This document shows, piece after piece, positions 10,673 through 42,605 of a stretch of DNA of 64,000 bases; within the stretch, counting starts at the first letter, position 1, and each line of letters opens with the position of its first letter. This DNA is from Alphaproteobacteria bacterium (GTDB taxonomy: Bacteria > Pseudomonadota > Alphaproteobacteria > UBA828), in assembly GCA_965221125.1 (NCBI GenBank), contig CBDCRW010000006.1, positions 480,001 to 544,000 on the forward strand, read 5' to 3'. The notes beneath the pieces are model-generated. The model was not told the origin of the DNA and ran no database searches. It was given only the letters and a program-made list of their open reading frames with translations. The translations under genes were made by a program, and so were the position numbers.

Positions 10673-10676
10673 CGGC

Positions 10677-12341: not shown

Positions 12342-12375
12342 CGTCAAGGTGTGCTGGCCAGTCTTATCGCCGGAC

Positions 12376-12603: not shown

Positions 12604-12607
12604 GCGA

Positions 12608-25021: not shown

Positions 25022-26566
25022 ATGAGCTGGGAGAAGGAGGTCGACGAGCTCGCGCGCAAGCGGGCGCTGGCGGAGGCGCAGGGCGGCGCCGACGGCATCG
25101 GCCGCCAGCACGCCAGGGGGCTTCTCACGATCCGCGAGCGGATCGACGCCATGCTTGATGCCGGCTCGTTCCGGGAGCTGGGCGGCGCCGCAGGCGTGGC
25201 GAGCCGCGACGCGGACGGGCGCCTCACCGATTTCCAGCCGGCCAACTTCGTTTTGGGTTTCGGCGCGATCGACGGGCGCCGCTGCGTCGTCGGCGGCGAG
25301 GACTTCACGCTGAGCGGCGGCTCGCCCAACGAGGCGGGCCTGCGCAAGAGCGTCTATGCCGAGGAGCTCGCCTGCACCTACCGCGTGCCCCTCGTGCGCC
25401 TCCACCAGGGCGCGGGCGGCAGCGTTGCCGGCACCGGGTCGAAGACCGTGGGCACGCCGGTCAACGCCCCGCCGCGCTTCGCCTCCGTGGCCAAGGCGAT
25501 GGCGAGCGTGCCGGTGGCTTCGGCGGGGCTCGGCGCGGTGGCGGGGCTCCCGGCCGCCCGCCTCGTGGCCTCGCACTTCTCGGTGATGGCGGAGAACTCG
25601 CAGATCCTGATCGCGGGACCCGCCGTGGTCGAGCGCGCGCTCGGCCGCCGGCCCAGCAAGGAGGCGCTGGGCGGCGCGCAAGTGCACGCCCGGAACGGCG
25701 TCATCGACAACCTGGTCGCGGACGAGCCGGCGGCCTTCGCCGAAATCCGCCGCTTCCTCGGCTACCTCCCGCCCAACGTCTGGGAGCTGCCGCCGTGCAC
25801 GCCGGCCGACGACCCGGCGGAGCGCCCGGCCGAGGAGCTGATCGGGATCGTGCCGCGCAACCGGCGCAAGCTCTACGACATGCGGCGCGTGATCGCGCTG
25901 GTGCTGGACGCGGGCTCGTTCTTCGAGATCGGCCGGCTCTACGGGCAGGGCACGATCACCGGCCTCGCCCGGCTCGCGGGCCAGCCCGTGGGCGTGCTCG
26001 CCAACGACTGCTGGCACCTGGCCGGCGCCATGACCGCAGCGGGCTCGCAGAAGACGCGGCGCTTCATCGAGCTTTGCGACACCTTCCACCTGCCGATCGT
26101 GAGCCTGGTGGACGAGCCCGGCTTCATGATCGGGGCGGAGGCGGAGAAGGCCGGCACCATCCGCTTCGGCGCCGCCGCCGTGCTCGCCGCCGCAAGCTCC
26201 GTGGTGCCCTGGGCGTCGGTCATCGTGCGCAAGGCCCACGGCGTGGCGGTCGCCGCGCACTTCGGGCCGGACGGCTTCGTCGTCGCCTGGCCTTCCGCCG
26301 AGATGGGGGCGCTGCCGGTGGAGGGCGGCGTGGCGGTGGCCTTCGGCCGCCAGATCGCCAAGGCCGACGACCCCGCCGCAGAGCGCGAACGGCTGGAGGA
26401 GGAGATGCTGGCGCGGCAATCCCCCGTGCCCCGCGCCGAGAGCTTTTCCATCCACGAGGTGATCGACCCGCGCGAGACCCGGCCCGTGCTCTGCGACTGG
26501 ATCGCCCGCGTCCAGCCCCTGCTGCCGCGCCTCACGGGCCCCACGAACTTTCCGGTGCGGCCGTAG
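25022..26566 (+). CDS. acyl-CoA carboxylase carboxyltransferase (beta) subunit
   Basis: QHARG.LTIRERI, EDFTLSGGS, IAGPAVVE, LVDEPGFMIG, IDPRETR. Confidence 0.9.
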   Translation: MSWEKEVDELARKRALAEAQGGADGIGRQHARGLLTIRERIDAMLDAGSFRELGGAAGVASRDADGRLTDFQPANFVLGFGAIDGRRCVVGGEDFTLSGGSPNEAGLRKSVYAEELACTYRVPLVRLHQGAGGSVAGTGSKTVGTPVNAPPRFASVAKAMASVPVASAGLGAVAGLPAARLVASHFSVMAENSQILIAGPAVVERALGRRPSKEALGGAQVHARNGVIDNLVADEPAAFAEIRRFLGYLPPNVWELPPCTPADDPAERPAEELIGIVPRNRRKLYDMRRVIALVLDAGSFFEIGRLYGQGTITGLARLAGQPVGVLANDCWHLAGAMTAAGSQKTRRFIELCDTFHLPIVSLVDEPGFMIGAEAEKAGTIRFGAAAVLAAASSVVPWASVIVRKAHGVAVAAHFGPDGFVVAWPSAEMGALPVEGGVAVAFGRQIAKADDPAAERERLEEEMLARQSPVPRAESFSIHEVIDPRETRPVLCDWIARVQPLLPRLTGPTNFPVRP

Positions 26567-26568
26567 GG

Positions 26569-28644
26569 CTACGCGATCAGCTCTGCGAGTTCGCGCTTGA
26601 AGGGCACTTCGTCTTCCGCGACGGGCGGGGCGTCGAGGGCTTCGGCGTAGCGGCGCCCGGCGTAGACCGCGTGGGCGATGGTGGCCGGCGCGAGCGCGTC
26701 GCCGATGGTGTCGACGGCTTCGAGACCGGCGTCCGCCCAGCGCTCCCGCTGGCCTAAGAGGTCGGCCGCGATCTCGTTTGCTGGCGTGCGCGCGGTGACG
26801 AGCACCACCGCGTCGGCTTCCGCTTCTTCGATGCGGCCGGTGTGGACGCACGAGGTCGCGACGAGGCCCGGCGCAATGCGGCTCAGGTTGCGGAACGCCT
26901 CGATGCGGACGCCCTTCTCCAGCAGGCGCGCCTGGGCGAAGTGCTGCTCCATGGTGTTGCGACTCCAGGTGGAGGCTTCCGACGCGGGCGTCGCGTAGGT
27001 GGTCTCAAAACCCTTGTCCGCCAGCAGCTCGGCCAGCACGCTCGCCATGTAGTAGTGGTCGTCGTCCCAGACGGTGACGCGCGTGCCTTCGGGCCAGCGG
27101 CCCGCCATGAGGTCGTCGGGCGTGAGCACCTGCGCGCCCTCCTCGACGGGGACGGGTGCGGTCCAGTGGCGGCCCACGCCATCGCCCCGCCATCGCGCGC
27201 CGGTGGCGATGACGACGCGGGGGCAGCCGAACTCGAGCACGGTCTCCGCGTCGAGGTGCGAATCCAGGTAGAGGACGACGTTCGGCAGCTTGTGAAGCTG
27301 TTCTGCGCGGTAGTCGCGCACCCGCCCCCAGGCGGCGAGGCCCGGCAGGCGGCATTCCCGCGCGACGCGGCCGCCCAGCTCCGTCTCCCGCTCGGCGAGG
27401 GTCACCTCGTAGCCGCGCTTGCCGAGCGCCTGCGCGGCTTCCAGCCCGGCGGGGCCGGCGCCGACGATCAGCACGGGCTTCTCGCTCTCCTTGGGCCGGA
27501 TGCGCTCGGGGTGCCAGCCGCGCCGCCATTCCTCCCCCATGGTCGGGTTCTGGGTGCAGCGGATGGGCGACATGGTGAAGTCGCCGGAGACGCAGATGTT
27601 GCAGCCGATGCACTCGCGGATGTCCTCCAGCCGCCCCTCCGCCACCTTGTTCGGCAGGAAGGGATCGGCGATGGAGGGCCGCGCGCAGCCGATCAGGTCG
27701 ACGATGCCCTTCCTCACGATGGAGACCATGCGGTCGGGCGAGGTGTAGCGGCCGACGCCGACCACCGGCTTCGTGGTGAGCGCCTTGACGCCGGCGATGA
27801 AGGGTTCCTGCCAGCCCTCCTCGCCGAAGCGCGACGGCATGCTGTCGTTCTCCCAGCCGGCGAGGCAGACGTCCCAGAGGTCCGGGATCTCGGCCACGAG
27901 GCCGATCATGTCCTCGGTCTCGGCCTTCTCCAGCCCGGCCGCGCCGCGCAGCTCGTCCACGGAGAGCCGGCAGGGCACGGCGCAGGTGTCGCCCACCGCC
28001 TCCTTCGTGTCGGTCAGCAGCTCCTTGAGGAGGCGCGCGCGGTTCTCCAGCGAGCCGCCGTATTCGTCCGTGCGCCGGTTGAACTCGCGGGAGAGGAATT
28101 GGTGCAGGATGTTGAGCGCGTGGCCGCCGTAGACGTAGATCAGATCGAAGCCAGCCTGGCGCGCGCGGAGCGCCGCCGCCCTGTGCCAGCGGCGGAGGTT
28201 GCGGATGTCCTGCTTGTCCATGGTGCGCCCCTGCAGGGGCTCGTAGCTCATGCCCGCGACCGGCAGGCCGGCCGGCCCCATCGGCACCTCGCGGGAATAA
28301 AAATTCGGGCTGTGCAGGCCGTTGTAGCAAAGCTCCAGCCCGGCGAGCGACCCGTGCGCGTGGATGTGCTCAGCCATCTTGGCGAGCATGGGCACGTCGC
28401 GATCGTCCCAGAGGCGAAGCTCGATGAAGGGCGTGATCTCGGCGCTCCAGTGGAACTCGACCTGCTCGGTGCAGACCACCGCCCAGCCGCCTTCGGCCTT
28501 GACGCCCCGCATGTGGGCAAGCGCCGTCGGGTCGCGGTAGCCCATGCCGGTGCAATGCGGCACCTGGTAGAATCGGTTGCGGGCGGTGACGGGCCCGATC
28601 CGGACGGGCTCGAGCAGGATGTCGTAGCGGGATTCCGCGCTCAT
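26569..28644 (-). CDS. histamine dehydrogenase-like Fe-S flavoprotein (TMADH family)
   Basis: NRFYQVPHC (6-S-cysteinyl-FMN Cys), GMGYRDP, CTEQ (Gln where TMADH has Tyr60), PFIELR.WDD, CIGCNICVSGD...CTQNP 4Fe-4S, GEEWRRGWHPE. Confidence 0.85.
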   Translation of the reverse strand: MSAESRYDILLEPVRIGPVTARNRFYQVPHCTGMGYRDPTALAHMRGVKAEGGWAVVCTEQVEFHWSAEITPFIELRLWDDRDVPMLAKMAEHIHAHGSLAGLELCYNGLHSPNFYSREVPMGPAGLPVAGMSYEPLQGRTMDKQDIRNLRRWHRAAALRARQAGFDLIYVYGGHALNILHQFLSREFNRRTDEYGGSLENRARLLKELLTDTKEAVGDTCAVPCRLSVDELRGAAGLEKAETEDMIGLVAEIPDLWDVCLAGWENDSMPSRFGEEGWQEPFIAGVKALTTKPVVGVGRYTSPDRMVSIVRKGIVDLIGCARPSIADPFLPNKVAEGRLEDIRECIGCNICVSGDFTMSPIRCTQNPTMGEEWRRGWHPERIRPKESEKPVLIVGAGPAGLEAAQALGKRGYEVTLAERETELGGRVARECRLPGLAAWGRVRDYRAEQLHKLPNVVLYLDSHLDAETVLEFGCPRVVIATGARWRGDGVGRHWTAPVPVEEGAQVLTPDDLMAGRWPEGTRVTVWDDDHYYMASVLAELLADKGFETTYATPASEASTWSRNTMEQHFAQARLLEKGVRIEAFRNLSRIAPGLVATSCVHTGRIEEAEADAVVLVTARTPANEIAADLLGQRERWADAGLEAVDTIGDALAPATIAHAVYAGRRYAEALDAPPVAEDEVPFKRELAELIA

Positions 28645-28699
28645 GGGATCACCCATTCGGTGAGAGAAGGGCGGGCCGGGCGGTGCTCTCCAGAGGGAG

Positions 28700-28746
28700 C
28701 GCGCCGCCCGGCCTGTCGCGCGTCCGTGCATGACGGACGCGCTCCA
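28700..28746 (+). repeat. partial copy (3' hairpin) of the dispersed multi-hairpin repeat
   Basis: GGCCTGTCGCGCGTCCG-TGCATGA-CGGACGCGCTC. Confidence 0.65.
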
Positions 28747-28760
28747 AGCAAACGTGACGA

Positions 28761-29798
28761 CTACTTCTTCAGGCGGGTCCACATGGTGTCGTAGACCTCC
28801 TGCGTCGCCTGATCGCACACCGCGACGAAGGTGCCGGCTGGTGCGTCGGCGGGCGGCACGGACTCGGGCTGGCTGGCCAACTCCGGATCGAGGTGCGGAG
28901 TCACGCCTTCGACGCCCGCCGCGTAGCGCGCGAAGTTGGTGACCGCGGCGATGTTCTCCGGTTCCAGCAGGAAGTCCATGAACTTGAGCGCGCTGGCCCG
29001 GTTGGGCGCGTCCTTGAGCAGCACGACGTTGTCCATCCAGACGACGTAGCCCTGGCGAGGGTAGGCGTACTGGATGTTGGCGCCCTCATTGCGCGCCTTG
29101 GCGGAGAAGCCGTTCCAGATCATCCCCACCGCGGCGTCGCCGGAGACGAGAACGTCCTTGGCGCCGTCGGAGTTGAACGAGGCCCAGTGCGGCTTGGCCG
29201 CCTGCAGCAGCGCGTCGAGCGCCTTGAGCTGCTCGCGGTCGGTCGAGCACTGGGGAATGCCGAGGTGAAGGGAGGCCAGCAGCATGACCTCGCCCTGGGA
29301 ATCGAGGACGTTGATCTTGCCCTTCAGCTCGTCCGGCGGGTCGTAGACGATGCTGGTGTCGTTGATGTCGCCGGAATAGGCATCCAGGTTGACCGAGAAG
29401 CTGGTCGAGCCCCACTGGTAGGGGATCGAGTGCTTGCGGCCCGGATCGAAGGGCACGTCCACCCATTGCGGCTCGATGTTGCCCTTGTTGGCGAGCTCGC
29501 CCTCCGCGATGGTGTCGAGCATGCCTTCGCCCCGCATGATCTCGACCATGTAGTCGCCCGGCACGGCCACGTCGTAGGAGCCGAGCTTGCCGGCCTTGAG
29601 CGTGGCCAGCATGGCCTCGTTGGAATCGAAGGTGTCCATGGTCACCTCGATCCCGGTCTCGGCCGAGAACTTGTCGAGCAGCTCCTGCGGGATGTACTCG
29701 AACCAGTGGTAGATCGAGAGCTTCTCCTGTGCGTGAGCGGCGCTCACGACAAAAGTGAGTGCCAACGCGGCTGCGCCGGCCTTGAGGATTGTCCGCAT
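28761..29798 (-). CDS. polyamine/amine ABC transporter substrate-binding protein (PotD-like)
   Basis: Signal peptide; WFEYI, FDSNE, PYQWG, WMDN. Confidence 0.9.
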   Translation of the reverse strand: MRTILKAGAAALALTFVVSAAHAQEKLSIYHWFEYIPQELLDKFSAETGIEVTMDTFDSNEAMLATLKAGKLGSYDVAVPGDYMVEIMRGEGMLDTIAEGELANKGNIEPQWVDVPFDPGRKHSIPYQWGSTSFSVNLDAYSGDINDTSIVYDPPDELKGKINVLDSQGEVMLLASLHLGIPQCSTDREQLKALDALLQAAKPHWASFNSDGAKDVLVSGDAAVGMIWNGFSAKARNEGANIQYAYPRQGYVVWMDNVVLLKDAPNRASALKFMDFLLEPENIAAVTNFARYAAGVEGVTPHLDPELASQPESVPPADAPAGTFVAVCDQATQEVYDTMWTRLKK

Positions 29799-29837
29799 GT
29801 CTCCCTCCTTAGGTTGTGCGGGTGTTCACGGTAAGGC

Positions 29838-30659
29838 CTATGCCTCCGCCTTCGTGCCCTGGCGACCGTAGCGGCTGATGAAATAGGACAGCGTGACGAT
29901 CAGGATCGAGACGGTGAGCATGATGGTGCTGAGCGCCATGATGTCGGGTTTGATCCCCTGCTTCACGGCCCCAAAAATCGCCGTGGGCAGGGTCTCGATA
30001 CCGGCGCCCTTGATGAAGTTGGTGATGATGAAATCGTCGAGCGAGATGATGAATGCCAGCAGAAAGCCCGCGAGAATGCCGGGCGCCATCAATGGCATGA
30101 GCACGCGCAGAAACGCCTGGAAGCGGCTCGCGTAGAGGTCCTGCGCGGCCTCTTCGTAACTGCCGTCGATCCCCTGCAGCCGGGCCGCGATCGGCAGGTA
30201 GGCGAAGGGGATGCAGAAGACGATGTGCGCCACCAGGATCGAGAGATAACCGAGCGTAAACCCGATGGCGCTGAAGAAGACCAGCGTCGCCACGGCGGTC
30301 ACGATCTCCGGCACCATGATCGGCATGCTGATGAGCGCGAGGTTGAGCGCCTTCCCTTTGAAGGCGCCGCCGCGCACCATGGCCACCGCCGCGGCCGTCG
30401 CGATGATGGTGCTGGCGACGGCGGCCGAGAGCGCGATGGTGAGCGAATTCCAGGCGGCGTCCTTGAACTTGGCCGATTCCGGCCCGGTGAAGATTTCCAT
30501 GTACCAGCGGAAGCTGAACCCGCCCCAGCGGGTGATCGAGAGCGAATCGTTAAAGCTGTAGACCATCACCACGAGGAGCGGCGCGTAGAGCACCACCAGG
30601 CAGAGGATGGTGATCGGCAGGAAGCCGGGGTAGCGCCGGATGTTGATCCTCTGCCGCAT
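29838..30659 (-). CDS. polyamine/amine ABC transporter permease (PotC-like)
   Basis: LYAPL..YSFN, PEIV, EEAAQDL, ISLDDF, TLP. Confidence 0.9.
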
Positions 30660-30660
30660 C

Positions 30661-31587
30661 TCAGGCGGCCCGCGCGCTGCGCAGCGCCTGGCGGCGCGCG
30701 TAAATGAAGAGCGCGATCAGCACGAGGGAGAGCAGGATCATCGACGCGGCCGCGCCGAAGGGCCAGTTGCCGGCGTTGCCCTTGAACTGCTCCTCGATGA
30801 GCGAGCCGATCAGGAAGTTCTTGGCGCCGCCGAGCAGGTCGGGCGCGAGGAAGGCGCCGAGGCTCGGCACGAACACCAGGATGCAGCCGGCGACGATGCC
30901 GGGCCTGACGATGGGCAGGATGACCTTGTACAGGATGGTCCAGCGGTTGGCGTAGAGGTCGGCCGCGGCTTCCGAGAGCGCGAAGTCGTAGCGCTCCACC
31001 GAGGCATAGATGGGCAGCACCATGAAGGGCAGGTAGGAGTAGAAGAGCCCGAGCTGCACCGCGAAGTCGGTGTTGATGAGCGCAATCGGCTCGCCGATGA
31101 CGCCCAAGCCCAGCAGGGCCTCGTTGAGCGGGCCGTTGTCGCGGATGAGGAACTTCATCGAGACCGTGCGGATCAGCAGGTTCACCCAGTAGGGGACGGT
31201 CACCAGGAAGAGCCACATGGAGCGTGTCGCGGGCGAGCGCGTGGCGATGAAGTAGGCGGTCGGGAAGCCGATGACGAGGCAGAGCACGGTGGCGACGGCG
31301 GCCTGGATGATCGAGCGGACGAAGATGACGATGTAGGTCCACTCGATCTGCGGCGGATCGTCGCCGAAGAGGCCGCGGTCGAAGATGAACTGGTCGTAGG
31401 CCGCGAGCGAGAAGTCCCAGATCACCCCGCCGCGGAACTCCTTCGTGAGGAAGGAGTAGACCAGCATCATCAGCACCGGCGCCACGAGGAAGAAGCCGAT
31501 GATGACCCAGGTCGGGATCAGCAACGGCGTGCGCACCGGCGCAAAGGTGCGGGAGACCGCGCGCGTGCTGGCGAGCTCGCCGGCCAT
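30661..31587 (-). CDS. polyamine/amine ABC transporter permease (PotB-like)
   Basis: [38 protein letters not shown]. Confidence 0.9.
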
Positions 31588-32675
31588 CAGTCCACCAGGA
31601 GCCGGGCGCCGCCGGGGGCGATGGCGAGGCCGGCGCGATCGCCGACGTGGAAGGGCGCCGCGCCGGCCCCGGCATTCTGCAGGCGGACCAGGACGTCCGG
31701 CCCGCCGTCGAGGCTGACGGTGTACTGGATATCGGTGCCGAGATAGACCGCCTGCTCGACGACGCCGACGAGGCCCGTGCGCGCCTCCGCCTCGGGCACG
31801 AGGGACAGGCGCTCCGGCCGGATCAGCACGTGGGCGGCGGCGCCCTCCGCAGGCGGTTGGCCTGCGGCCTGGCAGGGAAAGACCGCACCGTTGCCGAGCC
31901 GGCAGGTCCAGGCAAGGTCCGGCCCGCGGTGTACGGTCGCGTCGAGCACGTTGGTCTCCCCGATGAAGTTGGCGACGAAGCGGTCCACCGGCGCCTCGTA
32001 GATCTCGTGGGGCGTGCCCACCTGCCGGATCTCGCCCGCCGACATCACGGCGATGCGGTCCGACATCGTCAGCGCCTCCTCCTGGTCGTGGGTGACGAAG
32101 ACGAAGGTGATGCCGGTGTCCTTCTGGATCTGCTTGAGCTCGATGCGCATGGCCTGGCGGAGCTTGAGGTCGAGCGCCGACAGCGGCTCGTCGAGCAGGA
32201 GCACCTTGGGCCGGGGCGCCATGGCGCGGGCGAGTGCCACGCGCTGCTGCTGGCCGCCGGAGAGCTGTGCCGGCCTGCGCGCGGCGAGGTCGCCGAGCTT
32301 CACCAGGTCGAGGATGCGCACCGTCTGGTCCTCGATGTCCGCCTTGCTCCAGCCGAGGCGGCGCATGCCGAAGGCCACGTTCTCCGCCACCGTCATGTGC
32401 GGGAAGAGCGCGTAGTGCTGGAAGACCGTGTTGATCGGGCGCCGGTTGGGGGGCAGGTCGCCGAGATCCTCGCCGTAGAGGAGGATCTCGCCTTCGGTGA
32501 TGTCCTCGAAGCCCGCGATGAGGCGGAGCAGCGTGGTCTTGCCGCAGCCGGAGGGGCCAAGCAGCGTGAAGAACTCGTTGTCGCGGATGGTGAGCGATGC
32601 GCCGGCGAGCGCGGTCACCGGGCCGAACCGCTTGACGGCGTTGCGCACGTCGATGGCGATTGTCTGCTCGGTCAA
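31587..32675 (-). CDS. polyamine/amine ABC transporter ATPase (PotA-like)
   Basis: GPSGCGKTT, VFQHYALFPH, LSGGQQQR, LDEPLSALD; TTG start. Confidence 0.9.
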   Translation of the reverse strand: MTEQTIAIDVRNAVKRFGPVTALAGASLTIRDNEFFTLLGPSGCGKTTLLRLIAGFEDITEGEILLYGEDLGDLPPNRRPINTVFQHYALFPHMTVAENVAFGMRRLGWSKADIEDQTVRILDLVKLGDLAARRPAQLSGGQQQRVALARAMAPRPKVLLLDEPLSALDLKLRQAMRIELKQIQKDTGITFVFVTHDQEEALTMSDRIAVMSAGEIRQVGTPHEIYEAPVDRFVANFIGETNVLDATVHRGPDLAWTCRLGNGAVFPCQAAGQPPAEGAAAHVLIRPERLSLVPEAEARTGLVGVVEQAVYLGTDIQYTVSLDGGPDVLVRLQNAGAGAAPFHVGDRAGLAIAPGGARLLVD

Positions 32676-32712
32676 GACGCCTCTCCCGGCCCGCGGCGGA
32701 TCGTGAACCCGG

Positions 32713-33657
32713 CTACGCCTGGACGACCGGAATCTCGGGCCCGGTCAGGGTCCTGATCGCGTAGTCGGGCTCGTCGACCCGCGCGAACCCGACCCTCTCC
32801 AGCCAGTCGTCCGTCGAAAGCGCGAGGATATCCGTATCCTCCGCGATGTTCCTGAACGCGCCGGTGGGCAGCGTCACGTAGGGCGCGCAGGCGAGCGCAC
32901 AGCCCACGTGGTTCTTCGGGATGTGCGACGCCTTCCAGCCGATGTAGATCTTCCGGTAGCGCGCCCCCTGGTTCTCGCCGCAGAGGTAGGCCGCATAGGC
33001 GATCCTGTTGAGCCTCGCGTCGAGCCTGTCCCGCACGGCGTCCTCCTCGTCCGCCGCATGAGACATGATCCCTGTGTCTTCCATGAAGAGGCACGCGTGG
33101 TTGTCTCTGTCCTCGGCGATGGCGAAGCCGAGCGCGCACCAGATCCACATGTTGCCGTCGGAGACCGCGCTCGTGCGGTATTTTTCGGCGCAGACGACCA
33201 TCGCGCCCTCCTGCGGCGGGAAGTGCCGGCTGTCGGCCACGCCGAAGAGTTGCCGCGTCGCGTCCCGCAGGGGAATGAGGGAGTAGATCGGAATGTTCTC
33301 GATCCGCCCGACCGGATAAGTCTTGCCGATGCGGGAATCGATCGCGAGGTCGTAGCCCCAGATGGCGCCGTTGACGCCGCTGAAGGACGACGCCTGCAGC
33401 ATGTTGACCTGGCCGATGTATGAATCGTTACACTCGGCGCGGTCGTAGGACACGATCTCGGCCATGCCCTGGTCCAGGTCTTCCTCGAAGGGAAAGCCGG
33501 GGAACTGCTCCAGGTTCACGCTGCCCGTGGACAGCAGGACGGTCGAGACGTAGGCCCCCGGCTGCCCGGTCGCGGTGGGCTCCAGGTAGCCGCCGCAAGC
33601 GCTTTCCGTCGTGTTCCGGCAATTCCGAACGATCTCTGCCAGGCGTGCGTCAGTCAT
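32713..33657 (-). CDS. hdcA: pyruvoyl-dependent histidine decarboxylase proenzyme
   Basis: GYLEP...IVSYDRAE..DSYIGQVNMLQAS/SFSG (Ser90-Ser91 serinolysis site), GYDLA, FPP.EG, FMEDTG (catalytic Glu), ALACAPYV; matches the Lactobacillus-type HdcA as I recall it. Confidence 0.85.
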   Translation of the reverse strand: MTDARLAEIVRNCRNTTESACGGYLEPTATGQPGAYVSTVLLSTGSVNLEQFPGFPFEEDLDQGMAEIVSYDRAECNDSYIGQVNMLQASSFSGVNGAIWGYDLAIDSRIGKTYPVGRIENIPIYSLIPLRDATRQLFGVADSRHFPPQEGAMVVCAEKYRTSAVSDGNMWIWCALGFAIAEDRDNHACLFMEDTGIMSHAADEEDAVRDRLDARLNRIAYAAYLCGENQGARYRKIYIGWKASHIPKNHVGCALACAPYVTLPTGAFRNIAEDTDILALSTDDWLERVGFARVDEPDYAIRTLTGPEIPVVQA

Positions 33658-33669
33658 CGCGTGCTCCCA

Positions 33670-34440
33670 TCAGCCCGTGAATCCGAGCCGCCTGCCGAGG
33701 TCGGCCGCCGCTGCCGACAGCTTCTCCCTGATCCGCGTGCGCGCCACGGGACGGAAGCGGTCGGCGAGGCCGGTGATGCCGACGGAATAGAGGACGTAGC
33801 CGCCGTTCACGCGGATCGGGTGGCCGTAGCTGAGCACGCCGGCGTCGAGCTCGTTGTCGCAGACCGCCATGCCGTCGGCGCGAATCTGACCGAGCTCGTC
33901 GCGGATCTCCGCGTCGTCCACTCTGGTCTTCTCGGTGTAGCGCTCGCGCGGGCGCGCGAGATAGCGGGCGACGAACTCCTCGTCCTGAAACGCGAGGATC
34001 GCCTTGCCCGAGGCGGCCGCGTGCAGCGGCAGCTGCCGGCCCGGCTGCACGAAGGCGCGATCGGAGCCCGAAGGCTGCTCCATCAGCACGGACTCGGCGA
34101 AGTCGCCGTTGAGCCGGGCCAGATGCGCGGTCTCGCCGAACGCCGCCACCAGCTCGTCGAGAACCGGCTTGGCGAGCCCCGCATAGCCCGCGCGGTCCAT
34201 GCTCGCATGCAGGAGGGACTGCAGCCGGGGCCCGGTCACGTAGCTCTTGGTCCCGGGCGCACTCCGCAGCAGGTCGAGGTCCACGAGGCCCCGGATCAGG
34301 CGATGCACCGTCCCCGGTTGCAGCGCCAGCTCCCGCGCGATGTCCGTGAGCGTGAGCCCGGTGCGCGCGGCGGCCACCGTCTCGAGCACGCGGACGTAGC
34401 GCCCGAGTGGCTTGTCGTTGCTATCGGTGCTATCGGCCAT
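33670..34440 (-). CDS. IclR family transcriptional regulator
   Basis: N-terminal HTH (LTDIARELALQPGTVHR), LPLHAAASGKAILA effector domain. Confidence 0.92.
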   Translation of the reverse strand: MADSTDSNDKPLGRYVRVLETVAAARTGLTLTDIARELALQPGTVHRLIRGLVDLDLLRSAPGTKSYVTGPRLQSLLHASMDRAGYAGLAKPVLDELVAAFGETAHLARLNGDFAESVLMEQPSGSDRAFVQPGRQLPLHAAASGKAILAFQDEEFVARYLARPRERYTEKTRVDDAEIRDELGQIRADGMAVCDNELDAGVLSYGHPIRVNGGYVLYSVGITGLADRFRPVARTRIREKLSAAAADLGRRLGFTG

Positions 34441-34460
34441 CGTTCAGGGCGCTCCCGCCG

Positions 34461-36785
34461 TCATCGCGCGGCGGCGTGCTGCTGCAAGGCGCGGACCACG
34501 CGCTCCGGCGTGATCGGCATCTCGAAGACGCGCACGCCGATGGCGTCGGCGACGGCGTTGGCGATGGCGGGGGCCACGGCGGTCATGGCCGGCTCGCCGA
34601 TGCCCTTGGCGCCGAAGGGCCCGACCCCGCTGCGGGATTCGAGGACGATGCACTCGACGTTCGGCATGTCCATCGCCGTCGGCATCAGGTACTCGCTGAA
34701 CGACGGCGTGACCAGGCGGCCTTCCTCGTAGAGCATCTCCTCGCTGAGCGCGTAGCCTTGCCCGTTCTGCGCGCCGCCCTGGATCTGGCCTTCCACGGCG
34801 GACGGGTTGATGCACTGGCCGACGTCGTGGGCGGCGACGCTCTTCAGCACCTCGACCTCGCCGGTCTCCACGTCGACCGAGACCTCGACCGCGTGGGCGC
34901 CATAGGCGTAGTCGGGGTGGGCCTGGCCCTGGCCGGTCTCGGGATCCAGGAAGTCGCCGAAGGGCGCGCGGAAGATCGCGAGTTCCGAGCGGTGGATGCC
35001 CTCGGCCGCGCAGATGCGCACCAGATCGACCAGCGGCATGGTCTTCTCCGGCCGGTCGATGACGAAGACCTCGTTGAAGGCCATGTCGATCTCGTCCGGG
35101 GAGACGCCGAATTCCTGCGCCGCGCGTTCGGCGAGGCGGGCGCGAAGGCCCTCGGCCGCCTGCTTGGCGGCGTTGCCGGTCATGTAGAGCGCGCGCGTCG
35201 CCGTGGTGGTGCCGGCGAGCGGGGTGACGGCGGAATCGCTGTTGTAGGTGACCACGTTGTCGAGGGTGACGCCGAGCACCTCCACCGCGATCTGGCCCAG
35301 CGCCGAAATCTGGCCGGCGCCGATGTCAGTGACGCCGGAGCGCACCACGACGGTGCCGTCCATCTCGACGCCGACCCAGGCTTCCGAGGTGTCGTGCAGG
35401 AAGGTGAGGCGGCCGTAGCTCTGCTGATAGCAGGCGAGGCCGCGGCCGGTGCGGATCGGCCCCTCGGCTGGGGTGGGCGCGCCGAGGGCGGCCCAGGCCT
35501 GCTCCGCGCACTGCTCGGTCCAGATCGCGCTCGGCGGCACGAAGCCGGTGGACATGGGCTCGCCGGTCTTGAGGAAGTTGCGCCGGCGCACCTCCATCCG
35601 GTCGAGGCCGAGCGCGTTCGCGATCTCGTCCATCTGCTGCTCGTAGGCCGCGCAGGCCTGCAGCGCGCCGAAGCCGCGGAAGGCACTCGTGTACATGTTG
35701 TTGGTGGCGACGGCCTGGGCGAAGACGTTGAGGTTGTCGACACGGTAGGGGCCGGGGGCCGCGACCAGCGCGTAGAGGATGACGTAGGGGCTGAGGAAGA
35801 CGTAGGCGCCGGCGTCGGCGATCATCTTCACTTCGAGGGCTGTGATCTTGCCGTCCTTCGTGACGCCGGTGCGGTAGGTGAGGATGAACGGGTGGCGCTT
35901 GCCGTGGCCGACGAAGGAATCCTCGCGCGAGTATTCCAGCCGCACCGGCCGGCCGGTGTGCTTGGCCAGCAGCGCGAGGTAGACCTCGACGGTCAGGTCC
36001 TCCTTGCCGCCGAAGCCGCCGCCCACCAGCGCGCCCCGCACGCGGACCTTGTTGTGGGGCACGCCGATGGCGTCGGCGATGGGCCGAAAATGCTCGATCA
36101 CCTGGGTCGAGACGCGGATGTTCACCACGTCGTTCTCGTCCACCCAGGCGAGGCCCACCTCCGGCTCGAGGAAGGCGTGCTCCTGGAACGGGGTCTTGTA
36201 GGTGTGCTCGACGATCAGGTCGGCCACGCCGAAGCCGGCCTCGGCGTCGCCCTTCCTGATCCTGCGCTCGGCGACGATATTGTCCGAGCCGTAGACCAGA
36301 GGCGCGCCGGGCTTCAGCGCCTCCAGCGGGTCGTAGACGCCGGGGATCGGCTCCAGCTCGAACTCGATCAGCTCGGCCGCGTGGTCGGCGATGTCGCGGG
36401 TCTCGGCGGCGATCAGGGCCAGCGGCTCGCCGAAGTAGCGGACCCGGTCCTTCACCAGGATCGGCTGGTCGGTATCCAGCCTCTTGCGTCCGGTCTGGCC
36501 GGGGATGTCGGTGGCCGATGTGCGATCGGTGATGTCGGCGGCGGTCAGCACGCAGGCCACGCCCTTGAGCGCGCGCGCCCTGGAGACATCAAGGCGCACC
36601 AGACGGGCGCTCGCGATGTCGGCGCGGAGCACGCGCATGTGCAGCATGTTCGGCATCACGTAGTCGCCGGCATAGGGCGTGCGCCCCGTGACCTTGCCCG
36701 GCGCGTCGGTGCGGGTGAGCGGCTTGCCGATTTGCCGGTACTGGACGTTGGCCAGCGCGCCCGGATCGGTGTCGGTGTAGGTCAT
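34461..36785 (-). CDS. xanthine dehydrogenase-family molybdopterin-binding large subunit
   Basis: KVTG, QEHAFLEPE, VGGGFGGKED, SAFRGFG, GQIQGG, AKGIGE. Confidence 0.92.
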   Translation of the reverse strand: MTYTDTDPGALANVQYRQIGKPLTRTDAPGKVTGRTPYAGDYVMPNMLHMRVLRADIASARLVRLDVSRARALKGVACVLTAADITDRTSATDIPGQTGRKRLDTDQPILVKDRVRYFGEPLALIAAETRDIADHAAELIEFELEPIPGVYDPLEALKPGAPLVYGSDNIVAERRIRKGDAEAGFGVADLIVEHTYKTPFQEHAFLEPEVGLAWVDENDVVNIRVSTQVIEHFRPIADAIGVPHNKVRVRGALVGGGFGGKEDLTVEVYLALLAKHTGRPVRLEYSREDSFVGHGKRHPFILTYRTGVTKDGKITALEVKMIADAGAYVFLSPYVILYALVAAPGPYRVDNLNVFAQAVATNNMYTSAFRGFGALQACAAYEQQMDEIANALGLDRMEVRRRNFLKTGEPMSTGFVPPSAIWTEQCAEQAWAALGAPTPAEGPIRTGRGLACYQQSYGRLTFLHDTSEAWVGVEMDGTVVVRSGVTDIGAGQISALGQIAVEVLGVTLDNVVTYNSDSAVTPLAGTTTATRALYMTGNAAKQAAEGLRARLAERAAQEFGVSPDEIDMAFNEVFVIDRPEKTMPLVDLVRICAAEGIHRSELAIFRAPFGDFLDPETGQGQAHPDYAYGAHAVEVSVDVETGEVEVLKSVAAHDVGQCINPSAVEGQIQGGAQNGQGYALSEEMLYEEGRLVTPSFSEYLMPTAMDMPNVECIVLESRSGVGPFGAKGIGEPAMTAVAPAIANAVADAIGVRVFEMPITPERVVRALQQHAAAR

Positions 36786-37279
36786 GGTGCGCCTCCTCCG
36801 GCGCGCATGTCGCCGGCGGCGTCGGCGATTGCCTCGAAGATCTTGGTGTAGCCGGTGCAGCGGCAGAGATTGCCGCTCAGCCCCAAGCGAATGTCGTCCT
36901 CGCTTGGCTGCGGATGCTCGTCGATGATCGCCTTGGCCGCGATGATGATGCCGGGAATGCAGTAGCCGCACTGCGCGGCGCCGCCGTCGGCAAACGCTTT
37001 CTGCAGGGGATGCGGCGAATCCAGGTCGCCGAGGCCGGAGACGGTGGTGACCTCCTTGCCCGCCGCCATCCAGGCAAGGGTCAGGCAGCTGTCCACGGCC
37101 ATGCCGTCCAGCAGCACGGCGCAGGCGCCGCAGTCGCCCTTCTCGCAGCCGCACTTCACCTCCATGTGGCCGAGCTGGCGCAGCGCCTCCAGCAGCGTGC
37201 GGTGGGCGGGGAAGCGGCCTTCCTCCTCGCGGCCGTTGATGCGGAGCGTGATGGTTCTCGTCTCAGGCATGGGCGTCAC
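36782..37279 (-). CDS. XDH-family 2x[2Fe-2S] small subunit
   Basis: GCEKGDCGAC...SC; QCGYC...NLCRCTGY. Confidence 0.93.
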   Translation of the reverse strand: MTPMPETRTITLRINGREEEGRFPAHRTLLEALRQLGHMEVKCGCEKGDCGACAVLLDGMAVDSCLTLAWMAAGKEVTTVSGLGDLDSPHPLQKAFADGGAAQCGYCIPGIIIAAKAIIDEHPQPSEDDIRLGLSGNLCRCTGYTKIFEAIADAAGDMRAGGGAP

Positions 37280-38150
37280 TCCCTCGGGCCAGGCGGTTCC
37301 ACGCTTGCGTGACCAGGCGCCGGGTCAGGGCTTCCACCGTGTGGCGGCGGTAGCCGGCGGAGGCGCGGATGTCGTCGATGGGGCTGCATGTCTCCGCCGC
37401 CGCCGCCGCCGCCTCGTCGATGAGCGCGGGCGTGAGCGTCCGGCCCTCCAGCATCGCTTCCGCCTCCTTCACGCGGCGGACGTAGGGCGCGACGGAGGCA
37501 AGCGCGATCCGCGCCCTGGTGCAGGTGCCGTCCGCCACCGAGAGCGCCACCGCCACGCCGGTGACGGTGATCGCGTCGCCCTTGCGGCGCGCGAGCTTGT
37601 AGAAGGTGTCGGTGGAGTTCTCCGGCTGCTGCGGCCATGAGATGCGGGTGATCAGCTCGTCCGGCCGGCGCGCGTCCTCCTTGTAGCCGAGGTAGTAGTC
37701 GTCGAGCGCCAGCGTGCGCGTGCCGGACGCGCTGGCCAGCTCCAGCTCGGCGTCGAGCACGAGCAGCGGCGGCACGAGGTCGGCCGCCGGCGAGCCGCTG
37801 GCGATGTTGCCGGCGACCGTGCCCGTATTGCGCACCATCAGGCCGCCGAAGAGGCGCGCGGCGTCGATCAGCGACGGCGCCTCGCGCGCGATCTCGGGCG
37901 AGCGCAGCAGGTCGCTCACCGTGGTGCGGCTGCCGATGGCGATGCGCTCAGGACCGAAGGCCATGCCGAGCAGCGCGTCGACCTCGCCGAGGCCCACCAT
38001 CCGGTCGGGCCGCTCGCGCTTCGCGCGGATGTCGACGATGAGGTTCGTGCCGCCCGCGATGGGGAGCACGGTCTCGCCGGCCCCGTTCGCGAGCGCCGCC
38101 AGGGCGCCATCCAGGTCCGTCGGGATATCCAGTTCGAAGGGCGCGTACAT
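37263..38150 (-). CDS. XDH-family FAD-binding medium subunit
   Basis: IAGGTNL, RNTGTVAGN, SPAAD, PIDDIRASA.YR. Confidence 0.92.
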   Translation of the reverse strand: MYAPFELDIPTDLDGALAALANGAGETVLPIAGGTNLIVDIRAKRERPDRMVGLGEVDALLGMAFGPERIAIGSRTTVSDLLRSPEIAREAPSLIDAARLFGGLMVRNTGTVAGNIASGSPAADLVPPLLVLDAELELASASGTRTLALDDYYLGYKEDARRPDELITRISWPQQPENSTDTFYKLARRKGDAITVTGVAVALSVADGTCTRARIALASVAPYVRRVKEAEAMLEGRTLTPALIDEAAAAAAETCSPIDDIRASAGYRRHTVEALTRRLVTQAWNRLARGSDAHA

Positions 38151-38178
38151 ATCGCGATGTCTCCCGTCTCTGCCCGCG

Positions 38179-38961
38179 CTACACGTCCCAGCCGCCGTCG
38201 ACGGTGATGGCCTGGCCGGTGATCTGGCGGCTCTCCTCGCTCGCCATGAACAGCACGGCGTCGGCCACGTCCTGGCAGGTGGTGACGCGCTTCAAGCACA
38301 TCTCCTGAACGTACTCGTCGTACACCTCGTCGATGGTCCAGCCGCGCACGCGGGCCTTCTCCTCGCAGAGCTTCTGCATGCGGGGCGTCTCGACGATGCC
38401 GGGGCAGACCGCGTTGACGTTGACGTTGTACTTGCCGACCTCGAGCGCCACCGTGCGCGTGATCCCGCGCACCGCCCACTTGGACGCGCTGTAGGCGGTG
38501 CGCATGGCGTAGCCGCGCAGGCCCGACGTGCCGCCGATGTTGACGATCTTGCCGCTCCGCTGCGCGATCATGGTCGGCACCACGTACTTGATGGGCAGGA
38601 AGGTGCCGATCTCGTTGTTTCGGATGACGTAGTCGAAGTCGGCCACGTCGATGTCCTGCACAGGCGTCTCGATGGGGCCGGTGACGCCCGCGATGTTGAC
38701 CAGGATGTCGATGCGCCCGTCGAAGACCGCGCGCGCCTGCTCGACCATCGCCTTGACCTGCCCATCGTCGGTGACGTCGCAGCCCACGACATGGGCCGCC
38801 CGCCCCAGCGCACGCACGTCCGCCGCGACCGGGGCGAGCGCGTCCGTATCCCGCGCGGTCAGCACGACGTCCGCGCCCTCGCGCGCGAGCGTGGTCGTGA
38901 TCGCCGCGCCCATGCCCTTCGCCGCGCCGGTGACGATCGCCTTCTTGCCATCCACTCTCAC
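38179..38961 (-). CDS. short-chain dehydrogenase/reductase
   Basis: GTG start overlapping the upstream TGA; TGAAKGMG, YSASK, NAVCPG, ITVDGG. Confidence 0.9.
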   Translation of the reverse strand: MRVDGKKAIVTGAAKGMGAAITTTLAREGADVVLTARDTDALAPVAADVRALGRAAHVVGCDVTDDGQVKAMVEQARAVFDGRIDILVNIAGVTGPIETPVQDIDVADFDYVIRNNEIGTFLPIKYVVPTMIAQRSGKIVNIGGTSGLRGYAMRTAYSASKWAVRGITRTVALEVGKYNVNVNAVCPGIVETPRMQKLCEEKARVRGWTIDEVYDEYVQEMCLKRVTTCQDVADAVLFMASEESRQITGQAITVDGGWDV

Positions 38962-40574
38962 TGCATCGTTCCCTTGCTTGTTTGGCTCGTTGTCGCGGGC
39001 TCTCCGTAGCCGCCGCCGCCGCAGCTCTCGACGATCACCACGTCGTCCCTGCCGAGCCGCAGGTTGGCCTTGCCCGGCATGTCCTCGCGGCGGCCGTCGG
39101 CATGCGCGACGGTGACCCGGAAGGGCGCGCCGTCCTCGCCGCCCTGCAGGCCGTAGGGCGGCACCACGCGGCGCTCGAACATCGAGGTGACCGACATCTC
39201 GTCGGCGAGCACGCGGTATTCGCGGTGCAGGCCCTCGCCGCCCCGCCGGCGGCCGGCGCCGCCGGAGTCCGCGCGCAGGCGCTGGCACTCGATGCGGATG
39301 GGGAACTCGGCCTCCACCACCTCGGCCGGCGTGTTCATCACGTTGGACATGTGAACGCGCACCACCGGCGCGCCGTCGCGGTCGTGGCGTGCACCTTCGC
39401 CGCCGCCGTGGACCTCGTAGAGCGTGGTCCAGGCGCCGTCCGCGCGCCTTCCGCCGAAGAGCACGAGGCCGGACGTGGTCGGCCCGCCGGCGGAAATGCG
39501 CTCCGGCCCCACGGCCTCGAAGGCGCGGAACACGGCGTCGGCAATCCGCTGCGAGGTCTCGTGGTTGCCGCCCACCACGGGGCTTTCTGCAGACGGATCG
39601 AGCAGGGAGCCGGGGCGCGTCACGATCTCCAGCGGGCGGTAGCAGCCGCCGCTCGGCTGGATGTCGGGCCCGAACAGGGTCTTGACCACGTAGAAGACCG
39701 AGGCCGCGGCGATGAAGGGGGTGGTGTTCACGGGGCCCCGCGCGGCGTCCTCGGTCGCGGAGAAGTCGAAGCGCGCGCCGTCGCCGGCGATGGTGACGCG
39801 CACGCGCACGGCGACCGGCCCGCCGCCGCCGGCATCGTCGTCGAGCCAGTCCTCGCCCTCGTAGGTGCCGTCCGGAACGGCGGCGAGCGCCGCCCGCATT
39901 TGCGCCTCGGCCCGGTCGTGGATCGCGGCGACGGCGGCCAGCACCGTTTCCCGCCCGTGCTCGGCGCAGATGTGGTGGATGCGCTCCTCGGCGGCGCGGC
40001 TGGCCGCGACCTGCGCCAGGATGTCGCCCTCGCGCTCGTCCGCGCCCCGCACGTTGGCGCAGACCATGTCCAGCTTCTCGCGGTCGGGGCCGGAGGCGGT
40101 GAAGAGGCGGAAGGGCGGGATGCGCAGGCCCTCCTGCCAGGCGTCGGTGGCGCCGGCCACATAGCTGCCGGGCACCGCGCCGCCGATATCCGCCCAGTGG
40201 GCGAGGCTCGCGGCGAAGGCCACGATCCGGTCGTCCACGAAGATCGGGCGGATCGCTTTCACGTCCGGCAGGTGGTTGCCGCCCACCTCCGGCAGGTTCA
40301 GGAACCAGACGTCGCCGGGCTCCAGGCGGTCCCTGGGCACGCGCTTCAGGAACTCGCGGACGGTGAAGCTCATGACCCCCATGTGCATGGGGATGTCGCG
40401 GCCCTGGGCGATGAGGTGGCCGTCGGCATCGGTGAGCGCCGAGGAAAGATCGCCGGCCTCGCGCAGGAGCGGCGAGCGGGCCGAGCGCATGACCACGAGC
40501 GACATTTCCTCCGCCGTCGCCGTCAGCGCGTGGCGGATGACCTCCAGGGTGATCGGGTCGACGGTGCGGCTCAT
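38958..40574 (-). CDS. hydantoinase B/oxoprolinase family protein
   Basis: VDPITLE, ARSPLLREAGD, GGNHLPD, HWADIGG.VPGS, NTPAEVVE. Confidence 0.93.
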   Translation of the reverse strand: MSRTVDPITLEVIRHALTATAEEMSLVVMRSARSPLLREAGDLSSALTDADGHLIAQGRDIPMHMGVMSFTVREFLKRVPRDRLEPGDVWFLNLPEVGGNHLPDVKAIRPIFVDDRIVAFAASLAHWADIGGAVPGSYVAGATDAWQEGLRIPPFRLFTASGPDREKLDMVCANVRGADEREGDILAQVAASRAAEERIHHICAEHGRETVLAAVAAIHDRAEAQMRAALAAVPDGTYEGEDWLDDDAGGGGPVAVRVRVTIAGDGARFDFSATEDAARGPVNTTPFIAAASVFYVVKTLFGPDIQPSGGCYRPLEIVTRPGSLLDPSAESPVVGGNHETSQRIADAVFRAFEAVGPERISAGGPTTSGLVLFGGRRADGAWTTLYEVHGGGEGARHDRDGAPVVRVHMSNVMNTPAEVVEAEFPIRIECQRLRADSGGAGRRRGGEGLHREYRVLADEMSVTSMFERRVVPPYGLQGGEDGAPFRVTVAHADGRREDMPGKANLRLGRDDVVIVESCGGGGYGEPATTSQTSKGTMQ

Positions 40575-42586: not shown

Positions 42587-42605
42587 GGCACGGCCTCAAT
42601 TCTCG

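Follow-up and report, generated by a model that had tools for sequence, protein, structure and literature searches.

Why would a bacterium that carries a gene for a putative histamine-forming enzyme keep it beside the genes for an amine importer and for a dehydrogenase of the kind that destroys histamine? The question is raised by a 64-kb window (the whole stretch of DNA analyzed here; ~70% G+C) from an alphaproteobacterial genome that is 92% complete. A gene for a pyruvoyl-type histidine decarboxylase homologue (HdcA), four genes for a PotABCD-like ATP-binding cassette (ABC) importer and a gene of the trimethylamine dehydrogenase (TMADH) family follow one another on its minus strand, exactly where an earlier note, made from the letters of this DNA, had placed them. 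Pyruvoyl histidine decarboxylases have been studied as histamine makers in food spoilage, acid resistance and gut signaling, and histamine dehydrogenases as biosensor enzymes. We chose coding frames by third-position GC content and assigned families with Pfam and NCBIfam profiles and with phmmer searches of the PDB.

With moderate confidence, we favor the reading that the decarboxylase feeds histidine into a route that oxidizes histamine to imidazole-acetaldehyde within a catabolic amine module. Such a module would consist of an IclR-type regulator, a PotABCD-type importer, a histamine dehydrogenase with flavin mononucleotide (FMN) and a 4Fe-4S cluster, and a horizontally acquired pyruvoyl HdcA. 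The HdcA proenzyme would cleave itself between Ser90 and Ser91 to generate its pyruvoyl cofactor and would convert cytoplasmic L-histidine into histamine. The dehydrogenase would act on this histamine, together with imported amine, to yield imidazole-4-acetaldehyde and ammonia while passing electrons to the respiratory chain, and the aldehyde would become imidazole-4-acetate, possibly through the adjacent molybdenum enzyme of the xanthine dehydrogenase (XDH) family. As to origin, an importer-dehydrogenase module would have lain downstream of an IclR-linked heterocycle/lactam module, and the ancestor of the genus would have gained a foreign HdcA at that site.

Pfam scans found no hdcP or other antiporter, no hdcB and no hisS in the cluster, and Tetragenococcus HdcC and HdcB queries, run without a positive control, found nothing in the 92%-complete genome; the earlier note had likewise seen neither hdcP nor hdcB. 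Given that antiporter and HdcB are both missing, the decarboxylase would serve degradation, as a route to nitrogen, carbon and energy, rather than acid resistance or secretion. Feeding histamine oxidation is its most likely role because there is no exporter and because hdcA is packed closely against the importer genes.

The decarboxylase, the dehydrogenase and the importer

The HdcA protein matches PF02329 at 157.3 bits (cut-off, 25) over positions 16-292 of the 294 in the profile, and it contains the motifs S70-Y-D-R-A-E75, S90-S91 and F191-M-E-D194 from which the earlier note had correctly assigned it to this family. In alignment with the two chains of the solved Lactobacillus 30a enzyme (1PYA/1HQ6), the beta chain ends at the position of Ser90 and the alpha chain starts after it (A-S90-S91-F), so that S90-S91 corresponds to Ser81-Ser82 of that enzyme. 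The residues I68, Y71, D72, K159, F191 and E193 are likewise kept from Ile59, Tyr62, Asp63, Lys155, Phe195 and Glu197, which, with Ser81-Ser82, are catalytic or histidine-pocket residues of the latter enzyme. Across 22 diverse HdcA homologues, the Ser-Ser cleavage site is invariant and the other key positions are invariant or nearly so. The key residues match hdcA of Staphylococcus capitis and Limosilactobacillus reuteri exactly, and they differ from those of Tetragenococcus muriaticus hdcA only at the Phe195 position, where the latter has Tyr; two of these three comparison genes (S. capitis and T. muriaticus) lie in annotated hdcC-hdcA-hdcB-hisS loci. Identity to the Firmicutes hdcA genes is 28-33%. 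The ratio of nonsynonymous to synonymous substitution rates (dN/dS) is 0.03-0.23 in 15 pairs among six genus orthologues, drawn from clusters with and without the dehydrogenase, indicating that hdcA is under purifying selection. The protein looks like a working histidine decarboxylase, and both self-processing and decarboxylation are predicted for it.

The window HdcA carries a clade-specific C-terminal extension. A quick tree of 62 rows, rooted at the midpoint, puts it in an eight-row clade (support, 100). This clade is nested in a 14-row clade (support, 99) with metagenomic sequences, sequences from archaeal metagenome-assembled genomes (MAGs) and the genomic locus L011 (L and G numbers are our own labels for loci and genomes); the Firmicutes hdcA genes sit on a long branch. 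In two metagenomic loci of the sister clade, HdcA lies beside a gene resembling pyridoxal phosphate (PLP)-dependent tyrosine decarboxylase (L117) or a pyruvoyl arginine decarboxylase gene (L118). Plasmids of Rhizobium leguminosarum (L111) and Methylocystis (L112) carry annotated pyruvoyl histidine decarboxylases with altered key positions; for example, L111 has Gly in place of Tyr and, at the cleavage site, Thr in place of Ser, and L112 has several changes. These genes lie amid insertion sequence (IS) elements on very long tree branches and may have another function or be decaying.

The hdc locus of lactic acid bacteria (hdcC/hdcP-hdcA-hdcB-hisS, e.g., on T. muriaticus pHDC-I-1 and L. reuteri pLRI01) shares its cleavage site, as well as the catalytic and pocket residues, with the window HdcA. 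The window, however, has an ABC importer and a putatively product-consuming dehydrogenase instead of an antiporter, HdcB and hisS, and its logic would be catabolic, whereas that of the lactic acid bacteria is a proton-consuming exchange.

By bit score, the dehydrogenase is much nearer to both solved histamine dehydrogenases, those of Nocardioides simplex (3K30, 887 bits) and Rhizobium sp. 4-9 (6DE6, 877 bits), than to TMADH (2TMD/1DJN, 543 bits); a further PDB match, 6L6J (702 bits), lacks the FMN-linking cysteine in the alignment. The match to 3K30 and 6DE6 extends over the full length and includes the cofactor sites, which in the window enzyme are Cys31 for 6-S-cysteinyl-FMN and the C345-x2-C348-x2-C351...C364 iron-sulfur motif. 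The fold and the cofactor set are shared with TMADH as well. The motifs T59-E-Q61, P72-F-I-E75 and S353-G-D355, which the earlier note had associated with histamine dehydrogenase, do match both solved histamine dehydrogenases; the residues of TMADH in these places are Tyr60, Arg-Leu-Ser and Trp355, the last as an insertion. On this alignment of motif positions, we rejected an identification as TMADH or dimethylamine dehydrogenase. Eight histamine-binding residues have been proposed for the N. simplex enzyme (Gln65, Ile74, Phe77, Glu79, Asn115, Tyr181, Trp267 and Asp358, as listed in an excerpt of PMC10180351), and six are retained here as Gln61, Ile70, Phe73, Glu75, Trp264 and Asp355, along with the Tyr-His-Asp triad. 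By bit score, the flavoprotein groups with the histamine dehydrogenases, and a preference for histamine is predicted; its gene differs from those of the two solved enzymes in lying beside a histidine decarboxylase gene. A second TMADH-family gene elsewhere in the same genome (L091; G000, contig C4) shows 43-48% identity and probably encodes a dehydrogenase for tri- or dimethylamine, given that its pocket residues (Tyr, Asp, Arg, Ser ... Glu) are of the TMADH type.

The importer subunits are of the Pot type by Pfam and NCBIfam, comprising an ATPase, two permeases and a periplasmic binding protein, and have the same order as E. coli PotABCD, to which they give their best family and PDB matches (for the binding protein, E. 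coli PotD at 210 bits). All four nevertheless fall under the NCBIfam equivalog cut-offs (402.6 bits against 482 for PotA; for PotB, PotC and PotD, see Table 1), and PotA alone passes the polyamine subfamily profile TIGR01187. The ligand could be either histamine or a polyamine.

Histamine catabolism in Pseudomonas proceeds through the Hin proteins, that is, a transporter (HinA), an aminotransferase (HinC), an aldehyde dehydrogenase (HinD) and HinFLHG, as described in excerpts of PMC8231116 and PMC6467879. Compared with that system, the window has an ABC importer for the APC permease and a dehydrogenase for the aminotransferase, and Hin is without a histidine decarboxylase. Scans of the cluster genes found no member of the HinA, HinC or HinD families and no NAD-type aldehyde dehydrogenase; HinFLHG homologues were not searched for.

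Spacing and distribution of the cluster

The earlier note described short gaps or overlaps throughout, and this stands from hdcA to potD, with gaps of 37 nt (hdcA-potA), 1 nt (potB-potC) and 38 nt (potC-potD) and a 1-nt overlap of potA and potB, but not for the gap of 116 nt between potD and the dehydrogenase gene, which contains hairpins. The iclR-hdcA gap is 12 nt. A GGGAG ribosome-binding site lies between stop and start at the iclR-hdcA junction, and the TTG start of potA is preceded by GGGAGAGG. Upon folding, the potD-dehydrogenase spacer forms two strong hairpins, with -69.1 kcal/mol compared with -48.2 for shuffled sequences (z = -5.4). The second of these was found 3' of potD in all 10 genus loci that we compared with the window (L002-L005, L008-L010, L082, L099 and L119), including four that have no dehydrogenase downstream, and thus marks the end of the importer module. 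This conserved GC-rich stem-loop (GCCGGGCGGCGCGC ... GCGCGCCGCCCGGC) starts ~15 nt past the potD stop in most of these loci and further downstream in the window and L119, in both of which an additional perfect 10-bp hairpin lies ahead of it. The stem-loop may serve as a terminator that lacks a U-tract, or it may stabilize the mRNA, and the dehydrogenase may be expressed by read-through transcription or from a start of its own.

A scan of positions 26000-43500 for consensus promoters and terminators was uninformative, in that nothing promoter-like emerged and terminator-like sites numbered two where 5.0 were expected, and an Rfam scan of the whole window gave zero matches. Contigs from two RNA-library runs, with ~90-97% likeness, fall on potD, potC and potB of relatives, and one falls on the molybdenum gene; such contigs, in which DNA may be present, cannot show transcript, strand, level or co-transcription, and uncovered stretches prove nothing.

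We surveyed 49 species genomes of the order, with 21 from the window's genus (20 and the window's own). PF02329 is present in 16 of the 49, all of them in this genus (15 of the 20 and the window's own). The dehydrogenase gene is inside the cluster in seven, probably eight, of these 16 genomes. It is found there at 81-94% identity in G000 (the window's genome), G040, G048, G034 (two copies), G053 and G052; the order is rearranged to IclR-PotABCD-HDH-HdcA in G036 (L009; HDH denotes the histamine dehydrogenase-like gene), with HdcA 23 nt behind the dehydrogenase; and in G041 the HdcA contig stops just past the gene while a second contig has PotC-PotD-HDH. G034 holds two whole copies of the cluster (contigs C2 and C7; 92-98% and 85-93% identity to the window) and, with 7% contamination, may represent two strains binned together.

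Counting all copies with at least 74% identity, a dehydrogenase gene is present in 16 of 16 genus genomes with HdcA and in two of the five without it. Among the 21 genus genomes, 18 have the PotD orthologue and 17 have the molybdenum subunit; 17 carry CoxL together with PotD, and HdcA is present in 16 of these. Among the remaining genomes, G046 (L099) has the order Mo enzyme-IclR-PotABCD-HDH with HdcA missing, G038 (62% complete) has only a partial potD at a contig start, and none of the cluster or dehydrogenase genes was found in G043 or G049. The linkage of HdcA, importer and dehydrogenase that the earlier note described recurs within the genus and survives rearrangement, but it was seen in no other lineage searched.

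The in-cluster dehydrogenase and a form 74% identical to it never occur together in one genome. At a distance of 2-7 kb from the latter (L098 in G045, and L100-L102) lie an L-PSP/RidA-like gene, a Gfo/Idh/MocA oxidoreductase gene, two amidase genes and a glutathione S-transferase gene, and some of these enzyme types (enamine deaminase and amidases) also appear in the imidazole-acetate branch of Pseudomonas. At L098, a gene encoding DruA and DDE_Tnp_1-associated domains has inserted into putA and splits it.

Outside the genus, we examined the genome loci of the best 80 of 149 HdcA relatives, 71 of them more distant, and 79 metagenome loci from the best 80 of 309. No HDH-like gene lay beside HdcA in the 71 distant genome loci, within the flanks fetched, and no dehydrogenase gene lay beside it in the 77 metagenome loci from outside the genus. 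The other two metagenome loci are further copies of the genus cluster, one complete with a 94% dehydrogenase (L119) and one ending in potD (L120). The neighbors in the 80 genome loci include an APC antiporter (10 loci), a TGL-like gene (nine) and an S10 peptidase gene (six), and 10 metagenome loci have an antiporter. TGL denotes a protein-glutamine gamma-glutamyltransferase domain, and its pairing with the pyruvoyl HdcA homologue is recurrent: a TGL-domain gene directly precedes HdcA in Rhodobacterales-type loci (L016, L017, L027, L034, L035, L043, L048, L060 and L062) and in L113. HdcA is followed by a PotD/PotF-type binding protein gene in two short metagenome contigs (L121 and L130) and in an Anaerolinea MAG (L036). 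The L036 pair has a hybrid kinase gene on its upstream side and, on its downstream side, genes for a large HAMP-GAF histidine kinase and a response-regulator/cyclase, which suggests amine sensing rather than transport.

We also sampled 400 further genomes from across the class; none yielded PF02329, and 35 have HDH-like genes of at least 52% identity. One of these, a distant alphaproteobacterium (G154, L108), has the order DUF1028-ALDH-PotA-B-C-D-HDH, where ALDH stands for an aldehyde dehydrogenase; importer and dehydrogenase follow the window's order at 53-62% identity, with an aldehyde-oxidizing enzyme upstream. L108 differs from the window in having no HdcA, in having an NAD-type aldehyde dehydrogenase instead of a molybdenum enzyme, and in that no IclR gene was seen on its 11-kb contig. 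Given that the order recurs in so distant a genome, the importer-dehydrogenase pair is a module in its own right. At L011, in the wider HdcA clade of the window, HdcA is convergent with genes for DUF1028, M20, ALDH and a class III aminotransferase, followed by PotABCD; a dehydrogenase query against the L011 genome, run without a positive control, gave no match.

The statement in the earlier note that Gram-negative producers usually employ a PLP enzyme is dated, given that PF02329 genes were present in many phyla in our analysis and that an excerpt of PMC8465708 reports pyruvoyl-type HdcA genes across many phyla. We found no paper describing an hdcA-dehydrogenase cluster in a full-text search that was thin on subscription journals; it appears that neither the combination of these known families nor the involvement of a pyruvoyl histidine decarboxylase in degradation has been described.

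The earlier note also placed the route outside the Hut pathway. In support of this, hutU was not found in the window's 92%-complete genome, in which hutH reaches only 80 bits against a cut-off of 539. However, hutU is missing from 45 of the 49 order genomes whether HdcA is present or not, so that its absence is a lineage trait, and we rejected the idea that Hut absence and HdcA form complementary patterns. Three genus genomes have hutU, and two of these also have HdcA.

Competing explanations for the cluster

Several observations weigh against our preferred reading. The binding protein keeps nine of the 12 alignable spermidine-contact residues of E. coli PotD (W34, E36, Y37, Y85, E171, W229, W255, D257 and Y293), making a polyamine ligand possible; the three changed positions are T35 (to F), S83 (to G) and D168 (to S). 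HdcA scores 154.9 bits against the NCBIfam equivalog TIGR00541, under its cut-off of 346.65, and on the quick tree long branches part it from every experimentally known enzyme; its assignment holds at family level. The conserved hairpins past potD cast doubt on whether the dehydrogenase is co-transcribed. Of the 16 genomes with HdcA, eight (G035, G037, G039, G044, G045, G047, G050 and G051) have no dehydrogenase in the cluster and carry the 74%-identical copy elsewhere; this copy lies next to putA where annotated (L098), has Glu and Val at two pocket positions, and has no cluster gene beside it in the four contexts fetched (three of these eight genomes and G042). In G042 only the 74% form is present and the cluster was not found. 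All these genus genomes are close kin, and counts taken over them are not independent. The proposed breakdown of histidine extends only as far as imidazole-4-acetate. Two of the eight pocket residues of the dehydrogenase are changed, Asn115 to His111 and Tyr181 to Leu177, and the Rhizobium residue at the latter position, Phe176, tolerated no substitution in saturation mutagenesis, as reported in an excerpt of PMC10180351; leucine is natural at this position in other HDH-like homologues (L105 and L108). The same excerpt (PMC10180351) states that both solved histamine dehydrogenases also oxidize agmatine and some diamines (putrescine or 1,3-diaminopropane).

The main rival, which we judge unlikely, holds that importer and dehydrogenase work on a different amine (e.g., agmatine, putrescine, spermidine or one from the sponge), while HdcA acts separately and its histamine is a side substrate or is not oxidized. 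It draws on the retained PotD contacts, on the PotA score above the polyamine subfamily cut-off, on the agmatine, putrescine or 1,3-diaminopropane oxidation noted above, and on His111 and Leu177, which are unlike both solved enzymes. L099, with a cluster that has no HdcA, fits it too. The neighborhood of L011 (aminotransferase, aldehyde dehydrogenase and PotABCD) resembles polyamine-utilization loci. However, six of the eight histamine-pocket residues and the whole-length score point to a histamine dehydrogenase, HdcA accompanies CoxL and PotD in all but one of 17 genomes and is still adjacent after rearrangement, and no genome of the genus has HdcA without such a dehydrogenase.

We consider it decidedly unlikely that the cluster instead sets the histamine level, with HdcA making a signal to the host or to neighbors and the importer and dehydrogenase recapturing and destroying it. 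Public runs from several studies labeled as sponge metagenomes contain 25-48% of the window's sampled words, and a proposal exists that hdc-bearing symbionts of sponges supply their host with histamine (excerpt of PMC10570526); moreover, HdcA lies beside a PotD-type binding protein gene in three other loci, with the L036 pair flanked by sensor-kinase genes. No exporter or antiporter was found, however, and the packing of maker and importer with gaps of 12 nt and 37 nt would make their co-expression largely futile for signaling. None of the evidence here concerns a host, and the modulation of a host signal that the earlier note had raised is pure speculation.

A further, quite improbable alternative is that the HdcA-like protein decarboxylates a modified (e.g., methylated) histidine or another basic amino acid and that the dehydrogenase oxidizes the resulting amine. 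The score under the equivalog cut-off, the distinct clade without a characterized member, its C-terminal extension and the varied contexts of PF02329 elsewhere (TGL-like in nine, S10 peptidase in six and antiporter in 10 of 80 loci) would agree with this, but the histidine-binding and catalytic positions are those of proven histamine producers, the Tyr of Tetragenococcus at the Phe195 position excepted. Least probable of all, and by our estimate very much so, is an accidental adjacency in which a mobile hdcA inserted between iclR and potA with no functional tie: PF02329 is absent from the 400 other class genomes and, within the order, confined to this genus, plasmid copies elsewhere are flanked by IS elements, and the 28-34 kb segment has a GC content of 0.66-0.675, below its flanks, but hdcA is under purifying selection, is retained in 16 of 17 cluster-bearing genomes, again adjoins the dehydrogenase inside the cluster at its second position in G036, and is tightly spaced with sequences resembling ribosome-binding sites.

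The make-and-burn histamine route proposed in the earlier note is thus partly supported: its enzyme families and their linkage within the genus stand, the pairing is not general, co-transcription of the dehydrogenase is questionable, and the substrates are predicted ones.

The upstream block, other genes of the window and significance

All the genes named in the earlier note are present, but the array does not stop at hdcA: from 42586 to 26569, 13 minus-strand genes lie head to tail, with genes for IclR, a molybdenum enzyme, a short-chain dehydrogenase/reductase (SDR) and HyuA/B-like subunits continuing upstream on the same strand (Table 1). At the other end, a carboxyltransferase gene converges on the flavoprotein gene and terminates 2 nt from the stop codon of the latter, and the array therefore ends there. 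A 973-codon open frame (38179-41100), which crosses HyuB in another frame, hides the SDR gene from simple open reading frame (ORF) lists.

Table 1. Genes and spacer of the minus-strand array, listed by window position (bits are given against the profile cut-off)
Feature	Position	Strand	Evidence and remarks
Histamine-dehydrogenase orthologue (predicted), TMADH family	26569..28644	-	691 aa from conserved ATG; Oxidored_FMN and ADP-binding domains (Pfam)
potD-dehydrogenase spacer	28645..28760	-	Two GC-rich hairpins; conserved GGGTGA ahead of ATG
PotD/PotF-type periplasmic amine-binding protein	28761..29798	-	Signal peptide; Pfam SBP_bac_8; NCBIfam PotD 215.7 bits vs 582
PotC-like ABC permease	29838..30659	-	NCBIfam PotC 222.4 bits vs 326
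PotB-like ABC permease	30661..31587	-	NCBIfam PotB 238.6 bits vs 348
PotA-like ABC ATPase, TOBE domain	31587..32675	-	TIGR01187 373.3 bits vs 355.6; TTG start
Pyruvoyl-type HdcA-like proenzyme	32713..33657	-	314 aa; PF02329 157.3 bits; Ser90-Ser91 cleavage site
IclR-family regulator	33670..34440	-	Pfam HTH_IclR and IclR_C
Molybdopterin subunit, XDH/aldehyde-oxidase-family enzyme	34461..36788	-	Pfam and PDB matches; NCBIfam pucD 529 bits vs 784
2Fe-2S subunit of XDH-family enzyme	36782..37279	-	Translation, NCBIfam
FAD-binding subunit of XDH-family enzyme	37263..38150	-	Pfam FAD_binding_5 and CO_deh_flav_C
Short-chain dehydrogenase/reductase (SDR)	38179..38949	-	Within long spurious ORF; start codon approximate
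HyuB/oxoprolinase-B-like subunit	38958..40577	-	Pfam Hydantoinase_B 599 bits; caprolactamase beta 269 vs 1000; start = internal Met
HyuA/oxoprolinase-A-like subunit	40571..42586	-	Pfam Hydantoinase_A and Hydant_A_N; caprolactamase alpha 433 vs 1000

The six genes HyuA-HyuB-SDR-FAD-FeS-Mo recur in the same order, at 54-82% identity, in all five distant class genomes examined (L196-L200 in G181, G156, G216, G149 and G318), three of which have an IclR-like gene (46-47%) beside the block. The stretches fetched around these distant blocks contained no HdcA or HDH gene and no Pot gene beyond weak PotA ATPase matches (26-31%). Of the six sampled genomes with the molybdenum subunit, five (two congeneric ones among them) also have an HDH-like gene, compared with 35 of all 400. 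The three subunits of the XDH-type enzyme fall short of every NCBIfam equivalog, and the enzyme could convert imidazole acetaldehyde by oxidation, work on the imidazole ring itself, or have no connection with histamine.

Xanthine dehydrogenase hydroxylates purine C8 with water. We considered, as a rather unlikely proposal, that the whole 13-gene array (42586-26569) encodes a single pathway that leads, with no oxygenase, from histidine or histamine to an aspartate derivative and replaces the flavin monooxygenase (HinF) route of Pseudomonas. The XDH-type enzyme may hydroxylate the imidazole ring of imidazole-4-acetate with water, the SDR may adjust the oxidation state, and the ATP-dependent HyuA/B-type lactamase may open the resulting cyclic amide or ureide. 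The conservation of the six-gene block in all five genomes and the HDH-like gene in five of the six molybdenum-subunit genomes speak for such a pathway; against it speak the distant genomes, in which the block is not adjacent to the dehydrogenase, and the L108 module, which uses an ordinary aldehyde dehydrogenase. A literature search for a link between imidazole acetate and a molybdopterin or hydantoinase enzyme found nothing relevant. If the molybdenum/HyuAB block does act on the imidazole ring, this would be new chemistry for imidazole degradation.

Elsewhere in the window, a second Pot-like ABC system (ATPase, fused permease and binding protein) occupies positions 9566-13666 and 7798-9369 on the minus strand, accompanied by an amidase gene that lies ~200 nt off on the plus strand and converges on the ATPase gene of that system. 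An IS110-family transposase gene is found at 5800-6903 (minus strand). Further amine-related genes at 49037-51160 and 57567-60044 include one for a flavoprotein of the old yellow enzyme (OYE)/TMADH superfamily, 30% identical to the dehydrogenase, and one for a dimethylglycine/sarcosine-dehydrogenase-type protein (DAO and GCV_T domains).

In summary, the finding is drawn from sequence and concerns one uncultured, sponge-associated genus, in which a pyruvoyl histidine decarboxylase gene has been kept with the genes of an amine importer and, in about half of the genomes that have it, with that of a histamine dehydrogenase-like enzyme. Both enzymes would offer divergent natural variants for specificity studies. 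If our preferred reading is true, an operon with an importer in place of an exporter would give the pyruvoyl decarboxylase a degradative role, would provide a Hut-independent entry to histidine catabolism, and would show how a mobile decarboxylase gene plugs into an existing amine-utilization module. This would bear on how sponge-associated bacteria use or remove the biogenic amines that derive from their host and community.

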